NCBI GenBank assembly: GCA_949372875.1
Contig: CASIAW010000005.1
Coordinates: 98,586-162,585 of the forward strand
Length of the DNA stretch: 64,000 bases
Direction: 5' to 3'
Origin: Candidatus Poseidoniaceae archaeon
GTDB lineage: Archaea > Thermoplasmatota > Poseidoniia > Poseidoniales > Poseidoniaceae
This document shows positions 42,365 to 52,449 of the stretch, in pieces. The notes beneath the pieces are model-generated. The model was not told where the DNA came from and searched no databases. It saw only the letters and a program-made list of their open reading frames with translations. The translations under genes and the position numbers were made by a program. Each line of letters begins with the position of its first letter. Positions within the stretch are counted from its first letter, which is position 1.

Positions 42365-45016
42365 TTAGGACACGAGAGGGTTGGAAACGTATGGCTTTGA
42401 GTCTGTACGTTGAGCCTTAAGGTTGTGAAGAAGAATCGCAGCGCTTGCAGAGAAGATTTGAACAAGAGCGAAAAACGCTTGCCAGGTTAACATGAAGATT
42501 AGTCTTGGATAAGTAGGAGAATATGCATAGAGGCAAAGACATCCCAAAACAAGGAGAGATTGTGCGAGAATAAATGGCATTAGCGGAATCTCTTGTTCTT
42601 GTATGAACATCATCATGACGCACGACGCAATCAAGAGAGGACTTGCAATCATCAAGATCATCCATCCGGTTGAAGGGCTGTTACCAGCTGCGAAATAGCC
42701 TCCTTGAACTGCTACTGCGCCCGGGTCTAATTCTCTTGGGTGTGGACAAATCCCTTCAAAACAGGTTTGAATTCCATTAACTTGACCATAAAGAGTCCAC
42801 CAGAGCAACCACATCAACCAAGGTAACATGGCATAGAACAACCAAAGCCACTGTTGCGATGATTGCCTTCGTTCAAGTCCAGTCCATTTTTTCAAGGCAG
42901 AAACAATTGTTGGGGTGGATGCTAACAAGACGGTAATACAACAAGCAGCCCATGGCCCCCATGAGACCAAAGTATGCAATGCAACTGCATGGATGGTGTG
43001 CATCTTCGAATATTCTCGATTCTCACCGAAAAATGAGTGATGTATAGCAAGCCCATACCCAGCGAGAACAAGGATGAGCATCAATCGCTCAAGAGGGTCA
43101 TAACCGATTTCACGAACGATTACGCCAAGTACGAGTGCTATCCCAAAAAATGTGGTCGCTCGATGCTCATCTTTGGGTAATACGGTGTTTTTCACTACGA
43201 GGAGCATCCAAATGATGAGAAGGCCCGTTAGCAAAAAACCACCTATGCTGACGGCACTCAAATTAATCAGATCTAACATGTAATGCCTTCCAAACAAACG
43301 ACGATGGACCAGAACGATAGCCGATAATGTCAGAGCAAACACTGACAGAAGAGGTATCATAGATTCCTTTGTGCGTTCTGTATCTTTCTCAAGAAGAATT
43401 CCTCCAAGGATGTAATACCAAGGTATGAGGAAAAACCAAAGACGCAGTCCTCCGATACTGATGAGGACAACTGCAAACAGAATGAAAAGGTAATTTCGCT
43501 CTTTCTCATCACTTCTCCAATGTCCCGAGAATGCAAGAACAGAGACGGCAAGCAAGGCGAACATAGCGCTTTGCACCATAGCTTGCGTGAGCGTTCCTTG
43601 GAATACTACTAACGCAAGGAGAGTCAAACCTACGAGGCTCCAAAAACTGGGTTCAAACTTTTTCCATTTAATCGACGTGTTTGGAGCACGACCAAGCGCT
43701 GAGCTTACCAACCAAACCGCACCAAGTGCGCCGAGTCCACGCGGAATCATAGCAGAATAAGCAAGGTTTGCTTGAAAATACATCAATACAAAGCCAAACA
43801 AACCAATACCGCCAAGCTTGATTAATTCGTCTCTTTGAGTCATTTTATTGGCTCCAAACGCATAAGCAACTCCGGCGAGGAGAATGAGTAAAGTGAGAAT
43901 GGATACAATCACATCCAATGTCCTCACTTGAATCGGTTCAGTTTCGATTGATTCCCAATCAACAACCGTTTCTGACAACATGTCTTTGTCTTGAGGATAA
44001 TAAAACACGTGTCTGTTATATCCAGCCTTCCAATTCCATTGCTCCAACGTTGAAATTTCAGAGGATGTGTGGTCCAACATCGCAAGAGGAATCCTTCCTT
44101 GCAGTTGGTTAGGGAAATCGAGAAGCAGTGTGGAGACCATGAATGCGGCGATATCTGGCTGTTTGATGTCAGACCATACTCCAGTATTCACATGCGGTCC
44201 AGAAATAATAGCAGCGACTTCTTGAGTGACTTTTTCAGCAGAACCGTGGGTTCCTGCATCGGTCATGCCGTGATCGGCAGTTATGACAACAGTCCAATCA
44301 GGCGGCACTGTTCGTAAGAGTCGGTCCACTGTCAGGTCAATGGAGAGGAGTTTCTGCCTGTATTCATCGGTTTGAATCCCCCAATGATGGCCGACTTTAT
44401 CCGGTCCAGAAAAGTGTGCAGCAATGACGTTATGTTCTCCGTTTTGAAGCCATTGTGCGGCTACAGTTTCTGTTTCTTCATCGCCTTGATAGTAGTCGCT
44501 ATGGCCTTTGAAAGTATCAACAAAACTGATATTTGGCATACCTTGGTAGATATTCCCCATCACATAGCTTCCAACCATGCCTACAGAATACCTCTCATCT
44601 TGGGATGCGAGAGTCCATGGATCATTGCCACCTGGGTGGCCAAGATTGAAGTTGTTTAATCCATCAATCGGCCTGTTTGGAACTCCAGTCATCAATTCAC
44701 TGATGCATGTCGCAGACAGCGTAAGTGGGCCTGTTTGGATGTTTAATACAGCAGCCGTTTGTTTGTGACTGTTCAGGTTCGGCATGGATTTTTCATCCAG
44801 CATCAATTCTCTTCCAACACCATCCAAAATGATGAGCAGAAATCCTTCGTTTTGACTGATTATGCTCACCGCATCGACTTCTCCAGGTGGAGTGTCTGTG
44901 TCCAGCAAGACATAAGGAGCGGTAATGAACGCTGGAATGAGCATTAAAGCGAGTAGAAAATACAACCACCGTGTTGGAGGTGAACTGTACAGTTCAGCGC
45001 TTTGCGTTGATTCCAT
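42365..45016 (-). CDS. Alkaline-phosphatase-superfamily (type I phosphodiesterase / phosphotransferase) domain fused to a C-terminal polytopic membrane domain. Architecture resembles eukaryotic GPI ethanolamine-phosphate transferases (PigN/PigO-like).
   Basis: N-terminal TM, then FLLIILDGVGRE (metal-binding Asp), GPDKVGHHWG, VVITADHGMTDAGTHGS (AlkP-core His/Asp). After about aa 380 there are at least 12 hydrophobic helices. 883 aa. Confidence 0.55.
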   Translation of the reverse strand: MESTQSAELYSSPPTRWLYFLLALMLIPAFITAPYVLLDTDTPPGEVDAVSIISQNEGFLLIILDGVGRELMLDEKSMPNLNSHKQTAAVLNIQTGPLTLSATCISELMTGVPNRPIDGLNNFNLGHPGGNDPWTLASQDERYSVGMVGSYVMGNIYQGMPNISFVDTFKGHSDYYQGDEETETVAAQWLQNGEHNVIAAHFSGPDKVGHHWGIQTDEYRQKLLSIDLTVDRLLRTVPPDWTVVITADHGMTDAGTHGSAEKVTQEVAAIISGPHVNTGVWSDIKQPDIAAFMVSTLLLDFPNQLQGRIPLAMLDHTSSEISTLEQWNWKAGYNRHVFYYPQDKDMLSETVVDWESIETEPIQVRTLDVIVSILTLLILLAGVAYAFGANKMTQRDELIKLGGIGLFGFVLMYFQANLAYSAMIPRGLGALGAVWLVSSALGRAPNTSIKWKKFEPSFWSLVGLTLLALVVFQGTLTQAMVQSAMFALLAVSVLAFSGHWRSDEKERNYLFILFAVVLISIGGLRLWFFLIPWYYILGGILLEKDTERTKESMIPLLSVFALTLSAIVLVHRRLFGRHYMLDLINLSAVSIGGFLLTGLLIIWMLLVVKNTVLPKDEHRATTFFGIALVLGVIVREIGYDPLERLMLILVLAGYGLAIHHSFFGENREYSKMHTIHAVALHTLVSWGPWAACCITVLLASTPTIVSALKKWTGLERRQSSQQWLWLFYAMLPWLMWLLWWTLYGQVNGIQTCFEGICPHPRELDPGAVAVQGGYFAAGNSPSTGWMILMIASPLLIASCVMMMFIQEQEIPLMPFILAQSLLVLGCLCLYAYSPTYPRLIFMLTWQAFFALVQIFSASAAILLHNLKAQRTDSKPYVSNPLVS

Positions 45017-45145: not shown

Positions 45146-46297
45146 TCAACTGTAGGTTCCAATGTCATCAGAGGTGATGCCATAGTGAGCCCAGACATGC
45201 TCGAGGTGAGCAGTAACGTCGTAGGAGGTTCCAAGTTGAGTAGCGTCTTGAAGGTTCAAGATCTCGTTGATTTTGTCTGCACCGTAGTGTCCATCAAAGG
45301 TTTCGTTTGCTGCGTCACAAGCGGATGCATCAGAGTTTCCGACATAAGTTACGTTTCCGTCAGTGTGGATACATGCATTGGTGTGAGCAGCCGAGTATGC
45401 TTCGATTGCCTTCCAGAATGCATATCCTTCAACTTGATACTTCTCGCCGGACTCGTTGCTGTCCATCTTCGAAGTGTACTTGAGAACTGCTTGGGAGTAT
45501 GTAATGACGAGGTTCTTGACAACGGTGTCTGCTGCTGCAGTGTATCCAGCAGAGTCTCCTGCTTGGAGTGCTGCAAGTCCGTCAACCATTGCGGTTTGAG
45601 AAGCAGTGAGAGCGTTTGAGACGCCATTGGTTTCTGTGCCAAAGTCAGCAGCGCGCTTTTCCATTACCTTAGCAGGAGAGCAGCCGTAGTCTTCATCAGG
45701 TCCGTGGAAGAATGCCCATCCTTCGTCCCAGTTGTGTGGAGCGCCGGAGTCGTTGTCGACGTTTCCAGCATCTGCCTTTGCAATTGCTGAGTTCAACTCG
45801 TGAATAGTGTAAGCAACCATTCCCATGTTAACGGTCAACTTTGCAATACCTTGGTATCGAACGGTGTCAGAAACACCAGCGAAGTCGCCTGTGCCGTCCA
45901 TTGCAGCCATGATGTGGTCATCGACTGAACCGGATGCGTCGTAGTATGCATCGTAGCCGTGGTTCTTACCATCAGCAGACGCAAAGCCAGCGAGTGTGCG
46001 GTAAGAGCCATCGCTTTTTTCTGCATTCTTGCCGTTCATGTAGATGTCCTTTGCAGTTGCGAAGTCGTAGCCGCCATCAGAGCTAGCTGCGGTCTTCATG
46101 TCGCAAAGGTCCTTCATGAGAGAGCGGTGGTTGTCAACATTTGATGCATAGGTGTAGCCACCATCTTCAGCATCCATTGCAACGACCGAATCTGCTGCGT
46201 CCGTCGTTTCGTCTTCTTCTGATGCCAAGCAGCCTGCTAATCCAGAAACTGCCATCAATGCAATCAATACTAATCCTTTCAATTTTGTGTGGTTCAT
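45146..46297 (-). CDS. Secreted lipoprotein of unknown function (DGGY/DGSY-repeat containing)
   Basis: Lipobox MNHTKLKGLVLIALMAVSGLAGC. Repeated ...DGGYTYA..., ...DGGYDFA..., ...DGSYRTLAGF... 383 aa. Confidence 0.6.
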   Translation of the reverse strand: MNHTKLKGLVLIALMAVSGLAGCLASEEDETTDAADSVVAMDAEDGGYTYASNVDNHRSLMKDLCDMKTAASSDGGYDFATAKDIYMNGKNAEKSDGSYRTLAGFASADGKNHGYDAYYDASGSVDDHIMAAMDGTGDFAGVSDTVRYQGIAKLTVNMGMVAYTIHELNSAIAKADAGNVDNDSGAPHNWDEGWAFFHGPDEDYGCSPAKVMEKRAADFGTETNGVSNALTASQTAMVDGLAALQAGDSAGYTAAADTVVKNLVITYSQAVLKYTSKMDSNESGEKYQVEGYAFWKAIEAYSAAHTNACIHTDGNVTYVGNSDASACDAANETFDGHYGADKINEILNLQDATQLGTSYDVTAHLEHVWAHYGITSDDIGTYS

Positions 46298-46492: not shown

Positions 46493-46918
46493 TCAGCAAC
46501 AGCCTTCATCACGCATGGGGGCGCTGATGAAAGTAACCTTATCGACATTGGCAGTATTCTGGAGTTGCTCAATAACCGAACGATAGTGAGATGCCTTTCC
46601 AATGCCTTGGATCACATCGACACACGAATGGCTATGTTTGAGACAGCTGTGGTTGTATGAAGTAATCTCAAGTTCACCGGAGTGACGTAAATCGATAAGT
46701 TTATGCTCATTTCCGTGTTGATAGTAGATGACTAAGTGACCTTCAACGACTGTATCATCATCCATATCTGCTAACTCTCCTCTCTGTTGTATTTCAGCAA
46801 AAAGTAAAGCAGCATCTCGAATGAAGCGACTTCGGTTTTGATATCCTGATTTTTTGATTAAGTCTTCAAAGTCCTCGGCAAATTTTTTATCAGCACTAAA
46901 CGAAATGATTTGGCTCAT
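46493..46918 (-). CDS. nikR: NikR-like metal-responsive transcriptional regulator (N-terminal ribbon-helix-helix + C-terminal ACT-like metal-binding domain)
   Basis: N-terminal DKKFAEDFEDLIKKSGYQNRSRFIRDAALLF resembles the NikR RHH region (...LDxLxxxRGYxNRSEAIRD...). C-terminal domain has HLVIYYQHGNEH and HSCLKHSHSCVDV, His/Cys clusters placed like the NikR high-affinity metal site. 141 aa. Confidence 0.6.
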   Translation of the reverse strand: MSQIISFSADKKFAEDFEDLIKKSGYQNRSRFIRDAALLFAEIQQRGELADMDDDTVVEGHLVIYYQHGNEHKLIDLRHSGELEITSYNHSCLKHSHSCVDVIQGIGKASHYRSVIEQLQNTANVDKVTFISAPMRDEGCC

Positions 46919-46938
46919 GTTGTAACGGAGGAGAGAGT

Positions 46939-46974
46939 CACTAATAATAACTGCCTAGGTGGTAATTATTAGTG
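46939..46974. promoter_or_regulatory. Perfect 10-N16-10 inverted repeat (CACTAATAAT-N16-ATTATTAGTG) in the divergent promoter between the nikR-like gene and the ZnuA-like gene. Candidate NikR-type operator.
   Basis: Read directly. The spacer centre contains CCTAGG. A TATA-like TTAAATA (46977-46983) sits about 27 nt upstream of the ATG at 47007. E. coli NikR is known to bind a GTATGA-N16-TCATAC dyad. Confidence 0.5.
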
Positions 46975-47006
46975 TTCATTAAATAGTTAATAGAAAACGG
47001 CACGAC

Positions 47007-50000
47007 ATGAACAACAACCGTATGAGAGTCGTTTTCGTAAGCCTGATTATGATTTTTTCAAGCCTTGCTGGATGTATTGGCGATGAAGAATTGGAAGCTA
47101 TTGAAGAGGCCACTGACCTCTTGAATGATGCAACAAACTCCACAATGGATGGCAACAATACCACAACCATTGGGATGTTGGGATCCGTAATGGTTTCAAC
47201 ATACCACGTCGGAGAACTCGTCAAAGCAATCGCTGGCGAACATGTCGACATGGAATACATGAGTCTTGACAACATCCCCGTCCACGATTACGAACCATCT
47301 GCATCGGATCTCATCCGACTTCAGAACTCTGACGTTTTCTTCTACCACGGACTAGGACTCGAACCCTGGGTCGATGCAACGCTTGACTCCTTGGGTAACG
47401 ATGCTCCAACAGCCGTTCAAGTTCACACCATGCCTAGTGGGGAAGAGACCCTCGATTATGAATCGTTACTCGTCTCTGATTTGTGCAAAACTCTCTTAGA
47501 AGGGCCATACGAAACCGTTGAACTTGTTGATGAAGAAGAGCACGCTGATGATGTTAAAATCCTAGCTGAATACATGGCGCATAACATCACATTCCCTCAC
47601 GAAGAGCATGACGACCATGCTGATGAAGAAGGTGACCATGATGACCACGCTGAGGAAGAAGACGGGCATGACGGCCATGCTGATGAAGAAGGCAACCATT
47701 CAGAAGAAGGTCACGAAGACCACGACGCTCATGATGATGGCCACGAAGGCCATGCCCACCTTGTTGCTGAACAAACTCTTTCCAACCCTGCAGGATGTCC
47801 TGCTGACACAATGATTTCCATATTCCACCTCGAAGAAGGGGAATACATCATTGAATTCGATGCAGAACATGCAGATGATTTCACAATGGCAGTTCTCAAG
47901 ATGCTTGGCGGTCACGCACACCACGACCATGGTGACCACGGTGACGAACACGGAGATGAACATGATGACCATGATGGTCATGGTGACGAACACTTCGTTT
48001 GCCACGATATGACAACTCACGAAAACACCAACCACACCACTGAGGAAGAATGTGTAGCCGCAGGCCACATGTGGATGAAAGAAGACGGTCACGACGACCA
48101 TGAAGGCGACTACTGCCACGATACAACAACTCACGAAAACACCAACCATACCACTGAGGAAGAATGTGTTGCCGCAGGCCACACGTGGATGGAAGAAGCC
48201 GATCACGATGACCATGATGGCCACGACGACCATGATGGCCACGACGACCATGACGACCACGATGGCCATGACGACCACGATGGCCATGACGACCCGTGCG
48301 CCGACCACTATGACCACGACGACCATGATGACCACGGAGATCACATGACTGCAGAAGAAGCGCTTGAAGAAGCCGATTCAAACAACGACAGTCTCCTTTC
48401 TTGGGATGAATTCTGGGATTCCTGGAACGACGATGGGCACGATGACCATGACGACCATGACGACCATGATGAAGAACATCACGGCGTCTTCGTATTATTC
48501 CCTGACAACTGCATGCTCATGTATGCTGCTGAAGACGATATGCTGCCTGAAAACGCAACTGGATGGAACCTCACAACATCTGCAATGATGGGAGATGACA
48601 CACTCGAGCTCAATTACTCCGTTCATGAAACATACGGCACTAGTGTCAGTGGAATCAACGGATTTATGGCTCCAGAAGATTATTCCTGGTATTGGCAACT
48701 TATGCTCTGGAACGGCACAGAAAACAACACTGGCTGGGAAGTCAGCAATGTTGGTATTGACTCTGTAATGATTCCTGAAATGACAGAACACGTCGCTTGG
48801 ATGCCAAATTCCTCGGACATGTCATATTTGCCAGACCTCAGTATGATGCATGATGACCATGATGACCATGATGACCATGATGGCCATGATGACTTCGAAA
48901 GAACATTCCACTGCAGTTCTACCGTTGGTGGCACTCCAGACACAGAAATTCCGTTCTCTCAAGTGAACGATGGCACTGAAGACTGTGGCGATGGTTCCGA
49001 TGAGCCTCAAGACTTTGACGGTGATGGTATTGTTGACAACTGGTTCGACTGCATGGATGGTTCAAATGTGTCCATGGAATTCGTTAACGACGGATATGAT
49101 GACTGCCCTGATGGTGATGATGAATCTCACGATGATGACCACAGTGACAATGAAGGAGCGCCAACGCCTCAAGAATTTATCAATATGACTGATACTGACG
49201 GAAATGGAACAATGAGCTTTGATGAATTCATTGCATTCATGAATTCACCTGATCCTGACGGTGAACATGAAGATGATGATGAGTCATTGCCACAATCTAT
49301 GGTTGACGAACTCAGAGTAATATTCGATAACAACGATGCAGATCAGTCCGGAGAGTTAGATCTCGATGAACTCGACCAATTTATCATTGACACGGATGAG
49401 TACTTTATGTCAATGGATGGCGGTGATGGCGAACCGACTCAAGAGGAACTCCAGTTCCTCTTCAACGCATCCGATGCAGACGGCGACCAATTGTTGAACG
49501 TTACCGAACTTGGTGCATTCATGGAAATGCTCGAAGACCTCATGGAAGATGACCACCATGATGATCACGACGACCATGACAATCACGACGACCATGACGA
49601 CCACGGCGACGATAACCACGCTGACGAAGAAGATCACCATCCTGTCGGCTATGTGACCCTTCACGTTAATGCTGAAGGCGACTATGGTTTCGCTCTACCT
49701 ATGGATGTTGAATTCCACATCATGATGGCCGAAGGCGGCCATGACGACCATGCTGGCCATGATGATCACGACGACCATGATGACCATGCTGGAGAAGAAG
49801 GCGACCATGCTGAAGAAGAAGGCGACCATGATGACCACGCTGATGAAGAAGGTAACCATACTGATGAAGAAGGTGACCATGATGACCACGCTGACGAAGA
49901 AGGAGCTCTCGATTATGACCCTCACAGCTGGCTTAGCCCACTTGCTTTCAAGGCACAAGTGAATGTTGTTCTCGACGGACTAACCACTGCTTTCCCTGCT

Positions 50001-50447
50001 GGAGAAGCAGTCTTCAAGGTAAACGCTGAGGCATATGCTGCTCAATTAACAGCTCTTGACGTTTCATTTGACGCTGCCTTCGGAGAAGGCGGCCAATGCA
50101 TGGCTGGAGGTCAACAAAAGACTGTGGCTTCAAACCACAACGCTTACTCCTACATCGCAGTTGAATACGGAATCCAATTCATGACCGTTCACGGACTTGA
50201 CCCAGAAGGAGAACCATCTCCTGAAGATGTCGCTAAGGTTGTTAACTTCATCAAGGAAGAAGGAATCACTGTTCTGTTTGTTGAAGAATACACCGACCAA
50301 TCTTCAGTGCAAAGCATTGTTGATGAAACAGGTGTGTCGATTCAAATCCTTTACACCATGGAAATGGCACCAAGCGATTCTGATGACAATTACATGACAA
50401 TGATGACCAAGAACCTTGCAAACCTCGTAGCCGGTATCGGATGCTGA
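47007..50447 (+). CDS. znuA: ZnuA/TroA-family (cluster-9) metal-binding lipoprotein with an interlobe His/Asp/Glu-rich loop hyper-expanded to about 800 aa, containing EF-hand-like and LDLa-like calcium-binding modules
   Basis: Lipobox MNNNRMRVVFVSLIMIFSSLAGC. N-lobe motif ...DNIPVHDYEPSASDLIRLQNSDVFFYHGLGLEPWV... C-lobe DPHSWLSPLAF...ASNHNAYSYIAVEYGIQ...EPSPEDVAKVVNFIKEEGITVLFVEE... (TroA-like). Between them are HDDHDGHDDHDDHDG-type runs, DTDGNGTMSFDEF / DNNDADQSGELDLDEL / DADGDQLLNVTEL (EF-hand DxDxDG...E loops) and two VNDGxxDCxDGSDE modules. Confidence 0.85.
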   Translation: MNNNRMRVVFVSLIMIFSSLAGCIGDEELEAIEEATDLLNDATNSTMDGNNTTTIGMLGSVMVSTYHVGELVKAIAGEHVDMEYMSLDNIPVHDYEPSASDLIRLQNSDVFFYHGLGLEPWVDATLDSLGNDAPTAVQVHTMPSGEETLDYESLLVSDLCKTLLEGPYETVELVDEEEHADDVKILAEYMAHNITFPHEEHDDHADEEGDHDDHAEEEDGHDGHADEEGNHSEEGHEDHDAHDDGHEGHAHLVAEQTLSNPAGCPADTMISIFHLEEGEYIIEFDAEHADDFTMAVLKMLGGHAHHDHGDHGDEHGDEHDDHDGHGDEHFVCHDMTTHENTNHTTEEECVAAGHMWMKEDGHDDHEGDYCHDTTTHENTNHTTEEECVAAGHTWMEEADHDDHDGHDDHDGHDDHDDHDGHDDHDGHDDPCADHYDHDDHDDHGDHMTAEEALEEADSNNDSLLSWDEFWDSWNDDGHDDHDDHDDHDEEHHGVFVLFPDNCMLMYAAEDDMLPENATGWNLTTSAMMGDDTLELNYSVHETYGTSVSGINGFMAPEDYSWYWQLMLWNGTENNTGWEVSNVGIDSVMIPEMTEHVAWMPNSSDMSYLPDLSMMHDDHDDHDDHDGHDDFERTFHCSSTVGGTPDTEIPFSQVNDGTEDCGDGSDEPQDFDGDGIVDNWFDCMDGSNVSMEFVNDGYDDCPDGDDESHDDDHSDNEGAPTPQEFINMTDTDGNGTMSFDEFIAFMNSPDPDGEHEDDDESLPQSMVDELRVIFDNNDADQSGELDLDELDQFIIDTDEYFMSMDGGDGEPTQEELQFLFNASDADGDQLLNVTELGAFMEMLEDLMEDDHHDDHDDHDNHDDHDDHGDDNHADEEDHHPVGYVTLHVNAEGDYGFALPMDVEFHIMMAEGGHDDHAGHDDHDDHDDHAGEEGDHAEEEGDHDDHADEEGNHTDEEGDHDDHADEEGALDYDPHSWLSPLAFKAQVNVVLDGLTTAFPAGEAVFKVNAEAYAAQLTALDVSFDAAFGEGGQCMAGGQQKTVASNHNAYSYIAVEYGIQFMTVHGLDPEGEPSPEDVAKVVNFIKEEGITVLFVEEYTDQSSVQSIVDETGVSIQILYTMEMAPSDSDDNYMTMMTKNLANLVAGIGC

Positions 50448-50502
50448 TTGTAAGAACTTGATTTCGCAAACATAACCATGAACTGAAGAGAAGGTGAAAG
50501 AC

Positions 50503-50622
50503 GTGCACCTTGTAGATACACTTCCAATCATCGTTGTTTCAACGGTGTTCGTTGCCTTTTTTGGCTACTTACTGGTTGAATCTTTCTGGGCTACATACTC
50601 CAGTCAAGACGATTTTTCGTGA
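50503..50622 (+). CDS. Possible small (39 aa) single-TM membrane protein between the ZnuA-like and ZnuC genes (GTG start). Speculative.
   Basis: Manual translation gives VHLVDTLPIIVVSTVFVAFFGYLLVESFWATYSSQDDFS*. Hydrophobic core of about 20 residues. Below the 60-aa ORF-track cutoff. Confidence 0.2.
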   Translation: MHLVDTLPIIVVSTVFVAFFGYLLVESFWATYSSQDDFS

Positions 50623-50671
50623 TATCAATCTCAGATTCACTTTTGCGAATTGACATCAATGACATATCAAC

Positions 50672-51535
50672 ATGGTAGTGCTTAATATGCAACCTCCAGC
50701 CGATAACAAAGTGATGGAAGAAGCGGCTGCAATCCTAAAAATAAAGGATTTGACCGTAAGCCGTTCCGGAAAAGTGGTTATCCACGACATCAATCTAAGC
50801 GTACGTAAAGGCGAATTTATCGGTTTAGTTGGACCCAATGGTAGCGGTAAGTCAACGCTTCTTCTGTCCATTCTTGGCGTTTTGAGAGCCCAGCAAGGCT
50901 CTATTCAGATATATGGTCAAAAACCAATGTCAAGAAGCATTCTGGGTAAAATTGGCTGGGTCTCTCAAGCTGCAGCGGTCATGCCGAAGAACGTGAGAAT
51001 TACAGTTCGAGAACTCGTCCAACTAGGTACCTTAAACTCGAGGAATATGTTTTGGCGAAGAAAGGGAATCCATCGTGAAAAAGTGGACCAGGCAATGAAA
51101 ATGGTTGGATTAGAAGGGGTTGCAGACAATGACATAGCGCGACTTTCAGGAGGGCAGCGTCAGCGTGCTGTTATTGGTCGTGCTCTTGCATCCGATGCAC
51201 AATTTATCTTGTTGGATGAACCTCTCGTGGGTATTGACCGAGAATCTCGAAACTCGTTACTCAAGTTATTAGACAAGCTCTGCCATGATGAAAATAAAAC
51301 TATCCTGATGGTCTCACACGATCTCGCTGCGATTCGTCAAACCGCTCACCGTATGATTTATCTTGAAGAATCTATACGATTTGACGGGCTAACTGAAGAC
51401 TTCCCTGACCTTACAACCCTTGCTGGATTACGCGGCATTGAACCAGTGCATGGTCATAGCCATGACAAAAATATTCCGAAATCAATTGTTCTTGGGACTG
51501 AGAAGAATGAACATTCCAATAAGGAGGAAGAATAA
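50672..51535 (+). CDS. znuC: ABC transporter ATP-binding protein (ZnuC/TroB-like, metal-type ABC)
   Basis: Walker A GPNGSGKSTLL, ABC signature LSGGQRQRAVIGRAL, Walker B FILLDEP, H-loop MVSHDL. Confidence 0.85.
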   Translation: MVVLNMQPPADNKVMEEAAAILKIKDLTVSRSGKVVIHDINLSVRKGEFIGLVGPNGSGKSTLLLSILGVLRAQQGSIQIYGQKPMSRSILGKIGWVSQAAAVMPKNVRITVRELVQLGTLNSRNMFWRRKGIHREKVDQAMKMVGLEGVADNDIARLSGGQRQRAVIGRALASDAQFILLDEPLVGIDRESRNSLLKLLDKLCHDENKTILMVSHDLAAIRQTAHRMIYLEESIRFDGLTEDFPDLTTLAGLRGIEPVHGHSHDKNIPKSIVLGTEKNEHSNKEEE

Positions 51536-52449
51536 TGGGAATAGGAATGACGATTTTAGAACTCGTTGCTCCAGTACTCGAGTTTATCGCACCAATGGTT
51601 CCTGGAGAGATTTTTCCATATTTCTTTACTATGGAAATGTTTCAACGTGCTCTTTTGGCAGCGATCATGGTCACGATGGTTGCTGGTGTACTTGGCTCCT
51701 TTTTGCTGATTCGAAACCTCGCCCTTATCGGGGACGGTTTGGCTCACGTATCCTTTGGTGGGGTAGCTGTTGGTGTGGTATTGGGGGCCACTTCCCCCCT
51801 CTGGTATGCACTGGTATTCAGCGTAATTTCTGCAGTTATTATTCACGAAATGCAAACCAGAGAATTGCTAACTGGTGATGCCTCAATCGCTATTTTCTTA
51901 ACTGGAATGCTCGCTTTAGGTCTCGTTGTTCTTCGAGTATTTGGTGGAGGAATAACGAGCGATATCGAGGGATATCTGTTCGGAAGTTTACTTCTCATTG
52001 ACGAGAAGAGTCTTGACATGATTGCTAGCATCAGTATATTCTCACTTCTTTCCCTCTTAATGCTCTATTCTGGATTACTTTCGACGACCATTGATCCACT
52101 TGCTGCTCGTGTTCAGGGACTTCCAGTTCGAGCAATTGGACTCGTGTTTAGCATCATCACTGCTGCTGTAGTTGTGAGTATGGTTCAAGTTATTGGGGCT
52201 TTACTCGTAACCGCGTTACTGGTCACTCCAGCTGCAACCGCCCAACTGGTAGGGCGTAGTTTCCGTTCCTGTTTAATTTGGACTCAAGTTTTTGGAATGT
52301 CTGCTATTTTCATTGGGCTGTATCTCTCAGCAGAGCACGACTCGGGTAGTGGAGCAATGATTGCTTTAGTTGCGGCTTCGATATTTGCAACAGTGGCAAT
52401 CTTAAAAACTGTAATTCTGGGTTTGATTAAGCCAAATCAAAACCTCTAA
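51535..52449 (+). CDS. znuB: ABC-3 family metal-transport permease (ZnuB/TroC-like)
   Basis: 304 aa, about 8-9 TM helices. Start codon overlaps the znuC stop (ATAATGGG). ABC-3-like hydrophobic profile. Confidence 0.85.
   Translation: MGIGMTILELVAPVLEFIAPMVPGEIFPYFFTMEMFQRALLAAIMVTMVAGVLGSFLLIRNLALIGDGLAHVSFGGVAVGVVLGATSPLWYALVFSVISAVIIHEMQTRELLTGDASIAIFLTGMLALGLVVLRVFGGGITSDIEGYLFGSLLLIDEKSLDMIASISIFSLLSLLMLYSGLLSTTIDPLAARVQGLPVRAIGLVFSIITAAVVVSMVQVIGALLVTALLVTPAATAQLVGRSFRSCLIWTQVFGMSAIFIGLYLSAEHDSGSGAMIALVAASIFATVAILKTVILGLIKPNQNL

Follow-up and report, generated by a model that had tools for sequence, protein, structure and literature searches.

We analysed a stretch of 64,000 nucleotides (hereafter the window; contig CASIAW010000005.1 of assembly GCA_949372875.1) from a Candidatus Poseidoniaceae archaeon, in which the gene for a 141-amino-acid (aa) NikR-family regulator (46493–46918, minus strand) lies back to back with a plus-strand array encoding a ZnuABC-type ABC transporter. 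We consider it reasonably probable that this is a zinc-acquisition locus of the Poseidoniales (Marine Group II), in which a NikR-family regulator occupies the role of Zur. The core and the metal ligands of the solute-binding protein, together with COG0523 and ZIP genes that carry the same predicted operator, all point to zinc. An initial annotation of the window had placed the regulator, binding-protein, ATPase and permease genes correctly and had left the metal open (Ni, Co, Zn or Mn); these indications narrow that choice.

The regulator, whose sequence contains GYQNRSRFIRDAALLF, had been described as NikR-like, with a ribbon-helix-helix (RHH) N-terminus and an ACT-like C-terminal domain, and Pfam, the closest PDB sequences, an AlphaFold2 model and Foldseek agree on this. 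Its N-terminus matched Pfam RHH_1 with 21.7 bits (cut-off 20.5) and its C-terminal domain matched NikR_C with 22.0 bits, a score that equals the cut-off (22). The closest PDB sequence was that of P. horikoshii NikR (2bj1, E = 3.8e-8), with H. pylori NikR next. In the AlphaFold2 model (pLDDT 78.5), the two RHH helices span residues 11–24 and 29–51 and are followed by a beta-alpha-beta-beta-alpha-beta domain, with strands at 57–67, 84–92, 98–108 and 125–132 and helices at 71–79 and 109–120. When this model was compared with the PDB by Foldseek, the first 38 matches were all NikR chains, aligned over their full length, and the C-terminal domain superimposed on NikR metal-binding domains with a root mean square deviation of 1.7–2.0 Å and a TM score of 0.80–0.84.

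Curated NikR models were matched far less well. The NCBIfam scores were 46.8 bits for NF002169 (cut-off 111), 42.8 for NF003381 (105), 39.6 for NF001884 (119), 30.4 for NF002815 (83) and 23.1 for TIGR02793 (175), that is, 23–47 bits against cut-offs of 83–175. Among 1.84 billion cluster representatives, only 86 matched the regulator at E ≤ 1e-3; its own family comprises a few clusters at 50% identity, all with a GCC terminus, and ordinary NikRs come next at 27–34% identity. We conclude that the 141-aa protein is a NikR-family regulator of RHH plus ACT-like architecture, but not a canonical NikR. Identical copies of it occur on three long metagenomic contigs with matching neighbours. A distant member of the family, P0136 (36% identity), has the GCC terminus and no transporter nearby; adjacency of regulator and transporter is thus not universal in the wider family.

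The candidate metal ligands of the regulator, as placed by alignment, are H79, H90, C92, H97 and C99. In a HMMER alignment, ligands H78', H89, H91 and C97 of P. horikoshii NikR corresponded to H79, H90, C92 and C99, while H76', H87 and C95 of E. coli NikR corresponded to H79, H90 and C99, so that three of the four nickel ligands are kept. The fourth is not: position 92, the equivalent of H89 in E. coli NikR, is occupied by Cys in 70 of 81 orthologues and by Ser in the other 11, never by His, and the canonical square-planar His3Cys site (H76', H87, H89 and C95 in E. coli) is accordingly absent as such. H68, H79, H90, H97, C99, G139, C140 and C141 are invariant in the 81 orthologues, and residue 95 is His in 75 of them. 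An alignment across NikR clades showed H90 and C99 to be invariant everywhere and H79 nearly so, while the fourth-ligand position differs between clades. Canonical NikR has His there (HxH), the Poseidoniales clade Cys or Ser (HxC), and the sister clade from Thermoplasmata Asp (HxD), with CC replacing the single Cys in this last clade. Residue 92 is a candidate for the single position that determines metal specificity.

The binding protein encoded divergently from the regulator (47007–50447, plus strand; 1146 aa) was assigned by Pfam and by PDB matches to the ZnuA/AdcA/AztC-type (cluster A-I) solute-binding lipoproteins. A lipobox, LAGC, lies at residues 20–23, and Pfam ZnuA matched with 144.7 bits in two pieces on either side of a huge insert. 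With the insert removed, the closest PDB match of the remaining core was the zinc-binding AdcA of S. pneumoniae (7jj8, E = 4.6e-39), followed by AdcAII, YcdH, Lmb/Lbp and AztC. In the alignment with AdcA and AdcAII, three His residues coincide with ligand His residues of these proteins, namely H93 (in PVHDYEP), H973 (DPHSWL) and H1044 (NHNAYSY), and an acidic residue within LFVEEYTD (1090–1097) supplies the fourth ligand position. All three His motifs were kept in every orthologous gene that translates without stops. Among cluster A-I proteins, a His rather than a Glu as third ligand, combined with a His-rich loop, marks zinc binders, and the binding protein has both this ligand set and a His-rich loop ahead of the second His.

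That loop is the giant insert itself. It covers residues 98–970 (873 aa; 47298–49916, plus strand) and is placed between the first and second His ligands, where ZnuA carries its short His-rich loop. It contains 11% His, 20% Asp and 11.5% Glu; among orthologues the loop ranges from 360 to 873 aa, the one in the window being the longest seen. Within it we found EF-hand pairs (Pfam EF-hand_7, E = 8.4e-13) and LDL-receptor-A-like Cys modules, so the putative zinc-capture loop may also bind calcium. Two near-identical repeats of ∼35 aa, HD[MT]TTHENTNHTTEEECVAAGH[MT]WM, were also observed in it; the repeats and modules occupy residues of about 330–400 and 640–840 of the binding protein.

The remaining transporter components are a ZnuC/AztA-like ATPase of 287 aa (50672–51535, plus strand; Pfam ABC_tran, 110.6 bits) and a ZnuB/AztB-like ABC-3 permease of 304 aa (51535–52449, plus strand; Pfam ABC-3, 200.3 bits). 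A ZnuA-fold binding protein, an ABC ATPase and an ABC-3 permease are thus encoded together, and their order is conserved; in this respect the divergent array proposed for the window was borne out. The reported overlap of ATPase stop and permease start also proved real: the two form the sequence TAATG (51533–51537) and have one base in common, at 51535. Public gene callers start the permease at the ATG at 51547. We prefer 51535 because a GGAGG Shine–Dalgarno sequence (51523–51527) lies 8 nt upstream of it and because the 1-nt overlap is conserved, the same geometry being found again in other species. The top NCBIfam matches were AztC for the binding protein (121.7 bits, cut-off 350), AztA for the ATPase (162, cut-off 220) and AztB for the permease (147, cut-off 280), with AdcA (59.2, cut-off 700) and ZnuA (43.6, cut-off 268) also matching the binding protein. 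All three components fall below the cut-offs of the curated equivalogs, and the transporter is a divergent archaeal branch that has no exact equivalog.

One genome per GTDB species was scanned, which yielded 123 relatives of the regulator, of which 80 loci were kept. These came from Poseidoniales or from generically labelled archaea, apart from one contig binned as Verrucomicrobiales. That contig (L046, NZEQ01000042.1), labelled 'Verrucomicrobiales bacterium', carries a typical Poseidoniales regulator–transporter locus and is probably mis-binned. Sequence upstream of the regulator was sufficient for judging gene order in 76 species. In 63 of them the regulator and binding-protein genes diverge across a spacer of 84–90 bp (88 bp in the window), and in three the binding-protein, ATPase, permease and regulator genes follow one another on one strand. 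Nine have no transporter of this kind upstream of the regulator, and one could not be classified through an upstream run of Ns. Of these nine, L038 has a ZIP-family transporter gene (Pfam Zip, E = 4.6e-30) as the divergent neighbour of the regulator. The association of regulator and transporter is therefore far beyond chance. Where the regulator stands away from the transporter, we observed that a gene for SelO, a protein adenylyltransferase, lies downstream of it, at distances from <0.1 kb to ∼2.2 kb (L027, 8494–10391; L031, 2711–4572; L021, L022, L039 and L055), with a small multidrug-resistance gene between the two in L027 and L031.

The pairing extends beyond the Poseidoniales. Seven members of the sister NikR-like clade, the nearest to the Poseidoniales family, were looked up, one of which, on a 1.2-kb contig, was uninformative; the source names of three members are those of Thermoplasmata or Thermoplasmatota metagenome-assembled genomes. 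In four of the seven (L090, L091, L092/93 and L094/95) the regulator is the last gene of a znuA-znuC-znuB-regulator operon. In L089, on a short contig, it directly follows an ABC-3 permease gene, and in L087 it directly follows a ZIP gene. The ZnuA proteins of this clade have three His ligands, with short His-rich loops in two of the four examined, and their promoters carry motifs of the form TTAATAA/TTATTAA-N14-TTATTAA. In L090 (977–6631) a DtxR-family (Fe_dep_repress) gene stands ahead of the znuA-C-B-nikR-like operon and feoA-feoA-feoB come after the operon, forming a compact metal-homeostasis island with two different families of metalloregulator.

The pairing of a NikR-like regulator with a ZnuABC-type transporter had been presented as an unusual feature of an undescribed metal acquisition module. 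Neither description was supported: the pairing is the norm across the Poseidoniales and recurs as operons in the sister clade, it was already in print in 2011 (PMC3087415), and a zinc transporter had already been named as typical of surface-water Poseidoniales by Rinke et al. (PMC6461757). The pairing itself is thus not new, being general in the Poseidoniales and related Thermoplasmatota and anticipated in the literature. It is common, then, without having been characterized by experiment as far as we could find: our literature search, which covered few subscription journals and is weak evidence on this point, turned up no experimental study of a zinc-responsive NikR homologue.

Alignment of 77 distinct upstream regions of regulator genes revealed a conserved inverted repeat, TAaTAAtT-N11-AATTATTA, and, beside it, a second conserved block, cTAtTAacTATtTAat. 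In the window this predicted operator is a 27-bp repeat at 46945–46971 that departs by one mismatch from the family consensus, TAATAATT-N11-AATTATTA, and the palindrome extends to perfect 10-nt arms (46939–46948 and 46965–46974). Upstream regions of sufficient length could be extracted for 78 regulator genes, and 69 of them have a site with two or fewer mismatches. The predicted operator is the only good match in the window; the one other match, with three mismatches, overlaps it (0.36 matches are expected by chance at three or fewer mismatches), and no further copy was found within the 64 kb besides the locus itself. NikR boxes have been reported as inverted repeats of 27–28 bp (PMC545781), the size predicted here, and the half-sites resemble the weak H. 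pylori NikR consensus, TATWATT-N10-AATWATA as quoted in PMC3177205. We think it quite likely that the regulator binds the 27-bp repeat.

In nearly every locus the proximal arm of the repeat is 25–26 nt away from the ATG of the regulator gene, the place expected for a TATA box if the archaeal mRNA is leaderless, and the site overlaps the TATA-like box of the regulator gene (−27 to −34). The distal arm ends 35 nt before the ATG of the binding-protein gene, so that the site abuts the promoter of that gene, just upstream of a separate TATA-like block, TTAAATAGTTAATAG (46979–46993, plus strand; −28 to −14 from the ATG), which presumably serves as its promoter element. No Shine–Dalgarno sequence precedes either the regulator or the binding-protein gene, while the internal genes have one. 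This fits leaderless first cistrons, and both transcripts are probably leaderless. We also observed that, in loci L004–L083, Lys3 of the regulator occurs where 'TG' follows the proximal half-site and Gln3 where 'TT' does, and that the distal half-site is TAATAAAT where residue 6 is Thr and mostly TAATAATT where it is Ser; such co-variation could reflect protein–DNA co-evolution but is confounded with phylogeny, and we do not take it as evidence.

A total of 848 kb of fetched loci were scanned for sites with two or fewer mismatches and N10–12 spacing. Sixty-nine sites lay directly upstream of a regulator gene (66 with N11 spacing; 29 perfect) and 20 lay elsewhere. Every one of the seven COG0523 GTPase genes present in these loci had an operator-like site upstream. 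These genes were recognized by Pfam cobW and CobW_C; their best NCBIfam matches, all below cut-off, were a YjiA-like GTPase, CobW and ZigA. The site lies 48–55 nt from the start in six of the seven; in the seventh (L026) the best-scoring match, at 74 nt and with N10 spacing, includes Ns, but this gene also has, ∼49 nt upstream, a site with N11 spacing that is homologous to the L043 and L052 sites. The background density is ∼1 site per 42 kb and three of the seven species are near-identical; even allowing for this, seven sites in seven genes are beyond chance. The operator-bearing COG0523 genes include those at L043 10440–11702, L068 996–2646, L080 10950–12573, L081 1486–3169 and L058 ∼1018–1093. 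The ZIP gene of L038 shares the operator of the regulator, at 35 nt, and in the co-directional locus L020 a second site lies 35 nt upstream of the binding-protein gene.

In L068, L080 and L081 the COG0523 gene is followed by one for a Cys-rich protein of ∼110–130 aa (CxGCCCGR...), the L068 copy of which showed weak DUF1636 and 2Fe-2S ferredoxin-like matches; the COG0523 genes and these followers are probably further members of the regulon. Bacterial Zur regulons typically contain a ZnuABC-type importer, COG0523 proteins and ZIP/ZupT (PMC2770081). The set predicted here, of importer, COG0523, ZIP and the regulator itself, resembles such a classical zinc-starvation regulon. Neither adjoining the regulator nor among the operator-bearing genes did we see a nickel transporter or a nickel enzyme.

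These data can be brought together in the following model. The regulator, presumably a tetramer in which the RHH DNA-binding domain is joined to a NikR-type metal-binding domain, would bind the 27-bp inverted repeat in the 88-bp divergent promoter region, one half-site of which coincides with the TATA-like box of the regulator's own, apparently leaderless gene. When zinc is sufficient, the metal-loaded regulator on its operator would block TBP and TFB and so would repress both its own gene and the operon for the binding protein, a small transmembrane peptide (see below), the ATPase and the permease. When zinc is scarce, the apo-regulator would leave the DNA and the importer would be made; the lipoprotein would then capture Zn(II) at its His3 (plus carboxylate) site, helped by the giant His/Asp/Glu-rich loop. 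That zinc is the effector seems likely to us from the ligands and the genes that carry the site. For the importer promoter, we lean by analogy towards repression rather than activation. More broadly, we consider it more probable than not that a lineage of the NikR family changed its effector to zinc by exchanging one ligand of the His3Cys site, HxH becoming HxC in the Poseidoniales, which add an invariant C-terminal Cys-Cys, or HxD in the Thermoplasmata sister clade. This lineage would be a candidate master regulator of zinc uptake in the Thermoplasmatota, a Zur analogue that acts through the 27-bp box on COG0523 chaperones, on ZIP permeases and on a ZnuABC importer whose giant His-rich loop would serve in capture.

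Several observations nevertheless weigh against a zinc-responsive repressor. The inter-subunit metal site of the regulator was placed by alignment, the structure model being that of a monomer, and the occurrence of Ser at position 92 in 11 of the 81 orthologues leaves the exact ligand set unsettled; the model also leaves the invariant C-terminal GCC unexplained. COG0523 and ZIP proteins are not exclusively zinc-related, as is illustrated by the CobW matches, all below the equivalog cut-off. The operator is AT-rich and one of its arms doubles as a TATA-like box, so that its conservation may be driven in part by promoter function, and at the stand-alone loci L021, L022, L024, L027 and L031 the distal half-site is degenerate (4–5 mismatches). 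Finally, the site lies upstream of the TATA box and B recognition element of the binding-protein gene, a position that in archaea is also compatible with activation.

The main rival to zinc is nickel. The regulator could be a divergent Ni-responsive NikR governing a ZnuABC-like importer of nickel, or of nickel and cobalt, that serves, for example, nickel superoxide dismutase (Ni-SOD). It has the NikR fold, the invariant H79, H90 and C99 are three of the four high-affinity nickel ligands, compatible with Ni(II) or Co(II) sensing, and the predicted operator has the architecture of a NikR box. According to a 2024 review, all characterized NikR proteins sense nickel only (PMC11672702), and some Marine Group II lineages use Ni-SOD and hence need nickel (PMC10783094). 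Nevertheless, the residue equivalent to H89 is never His in the 81 orthologues, the NCBIfam NikR models stay far below their cut-offs, and the genes that appear to be co-regulated are COG0523 and ZIP genes, with no nickel enzymes or transporters among them. The importer also speaks against nickel: its cluster A-I binding protein combines a His3 site with a His-rich loop, and the solved proteins closest to that binding protein are zinc binders; to our knowledge, no cluster A-I binding protein imports nickel. We regard a nickel system as unlikely.

We think it quite improbable that the locus serves uptake of manganese or iron, in the manner of TroA, PsaA or MntABC, under a NikR-like repressor. 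Cluster A-I does include manganese and iron importers, NCBIfam also matched Deinococcus MntC/MntA, and ZIP proteins can carry iron or manganese. Against this, the third ligand is His (NHNAYSY) in all cleanly translated orthologues and not the Glu typical of manganese and iron binders, which moreover lack His-rich loops, and the solved manganese and iron binders MntC, PsaA, MtsA and YfeA matched the core of the binding protein 10–20 orders of magnitude worse than did the zinc binders. A link to iron might also be read from a FEA1-related lipoprotein gene (45146–46297, minus strand) directly downstream of the regulator, which matched Pfam Fea1 ('low iron-inducible periplasmic protein') and NCBIfam (321 bits, above cut-off). 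We rejected it as a member of the locus: it adjoins the regulator only in this species, it has no operator and it appears to have its own promoter.

Hardly more credible is the notion that the palindrome is merely two back-to-back AT-rich promoter elements, the regulator acting elsewhere or being no metal sensor, for, while the proximal arm does coincide with the TATA-like box at −27 to −34 and is far better conserved than the distal arm, surviving where the latter is degenerate, the two-arm N11 motif also stands upstream of unidirectional genes (all seven COG0523 genes and the L020 binding-protein gene), the binding-protein promoter has a TATA-like block of its own, the 27-bp inverted-repeat geometry fits NikR tetramers, and the metal-ligand positions of the regulator are invariant.

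We return to zinc acquisition, then, as the explanation that we favour, and note that the importer may have a component that has escaped annotation. Between the binding-protein and ATPase genes, behind a GGTGA sequence resembling a Shine–Dalgarno site, conservation revealed a small open reading frame with a single transmembrane segment, of 39 aa from a GTG at 50503 or 42 aa from a GTG at 50494, ending at 50622 (plus strand). The peptide (MHLVDTLPIIVVSTVFVAFFGYLLVE..., or MHLVDTLPIIVV...GYLLVE) follows the pattern M-x-x-V-D-x-L-P-I...G-x-L. It is conserved at the protein level in about two-thirds of the Poseidoniales loci with a readable spacer, and it is absent where the spacer between binding-protein and ATPase genes is short (55–105 nt). 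We regard it as a possible fourth transporter component that annotations have missed.

The binding-protein gene is a hazard for assembly. In one assembly it is split into three open reading frames (L003, 6479–9912), and many GTDB contigs (e.g. L005, L014 and L045–L051) terminate within the repetitive His/Asp-rich insert; the gene is therefore probably under-reported in annotations of metagenome-assembled genomes. Two genes away from the zinc locus, we observed a gene (42365–45016, minus strand) whose product, a polytopic membrane protein of 883 aa, carries a type I phosphodiesterase/nucleotide pyrophosphatase domain. This domain belongs to the alkaline-phosphatase superfamily, whose enzymes are usually zinc-dependent.

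The Thermoplasmatota include the surface ocean's most abundant planktonic archaea, and on zinc sensing in archaea only predictions have been made so far, for a DtxR-like ZntR and for a NikR homologue in methanogens. The present analysis offers a concrete model for an ecologically dominant, uncultured group, comprising a clade of regulators, a 27-bp operator, a predicted regulon and a candidate specificity position. If the model is true, it would extend the NikR family beyond nickel, provide a clean natural case of a switch in metal specificity through ligand substitution, and supply oceanographers with genes that mark zinc limitation in Marine Group II. If nickel should be the effector after all, the result would be no less informative, the locus then being the first with a cluster A-I importer regulated by nickel.

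Among known systems, one comparable in gene context is that of Methanothermobacter, where, as in the Poseidoniales, an archaeal NikR-family gene (MTH603/MTBMA_c09830) adjoins ZnuABC; Kaster et al. (2011) suggested that this homologue responds to zinc (PMC3087415). We draw the likeness from gene context alone, and their remark was a single sentence on genome context, made without analysis of operator, regulon or ligands. The Thermoplasmata sister clade differs from the Poseidoniales in its HxD...CC motif and its co-directional operons. A further archaeal parallel is ZntR of Methanosarcina, which was likewise predicted, for znuABC and COG0523, as a non-Zur zinc regulator (Haas et al., 2009; PMC2770081). 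It belongs to a different, DtxR/MntR-like family and, as far as PMC2770081 states, is a prediction without experiment.

With the NikR proteins of E. coli, H. pylori and P. horikoshii, the regulator shares its two-domain fold and its length. It would also share a 27-bp inverted-repeat operator that overlaps an ABC-importer promoter or lies close to it, and autoregulation is likely. It is unlike them in having Cys or Ser as fourth ligand, an extra invariant H97 and the C-terminal GCC, and in forming an isolated clade. Its predicted targets are a ZnuABC-type importer, COG0523 and ZIP genes, whereas those of NikR are NikABCDE and NikMNQO, and its predicted effector is zinc instead of nickel.

The resemblance to Zur is of another kind. 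The predicted logic and the content of the regulon are the same, and in both cases an AT-rich palindromic box overlaps promoters. However, Zur is a dimer with the winged-helix Fur fold, while the regulator has an unrelated RHH plus ACT-like fold and works in the context of archaeal TBP/TFB promoters; it is not a member of the Zur family, and the likeness is functional only, by way of regulon content. Archaeal genomes sequenced by 2009 were without Fur or Zur (PMC2770081). As for the importer, it resembles ZnuABC, AdcABC and AztABC in the His3 site of its binding protein and in a His-rich loop that separates the first two His ligands, and it resembles AdcA of Gram-positive bacteria in the lipoprotein anchoring of that protein. 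It departs from all three in its extra gene for a small transmembrane peptide and in the loop, which has grown from tens of residues to 360–873 aa and has acquired EF-hand and LDL-A-like modules.

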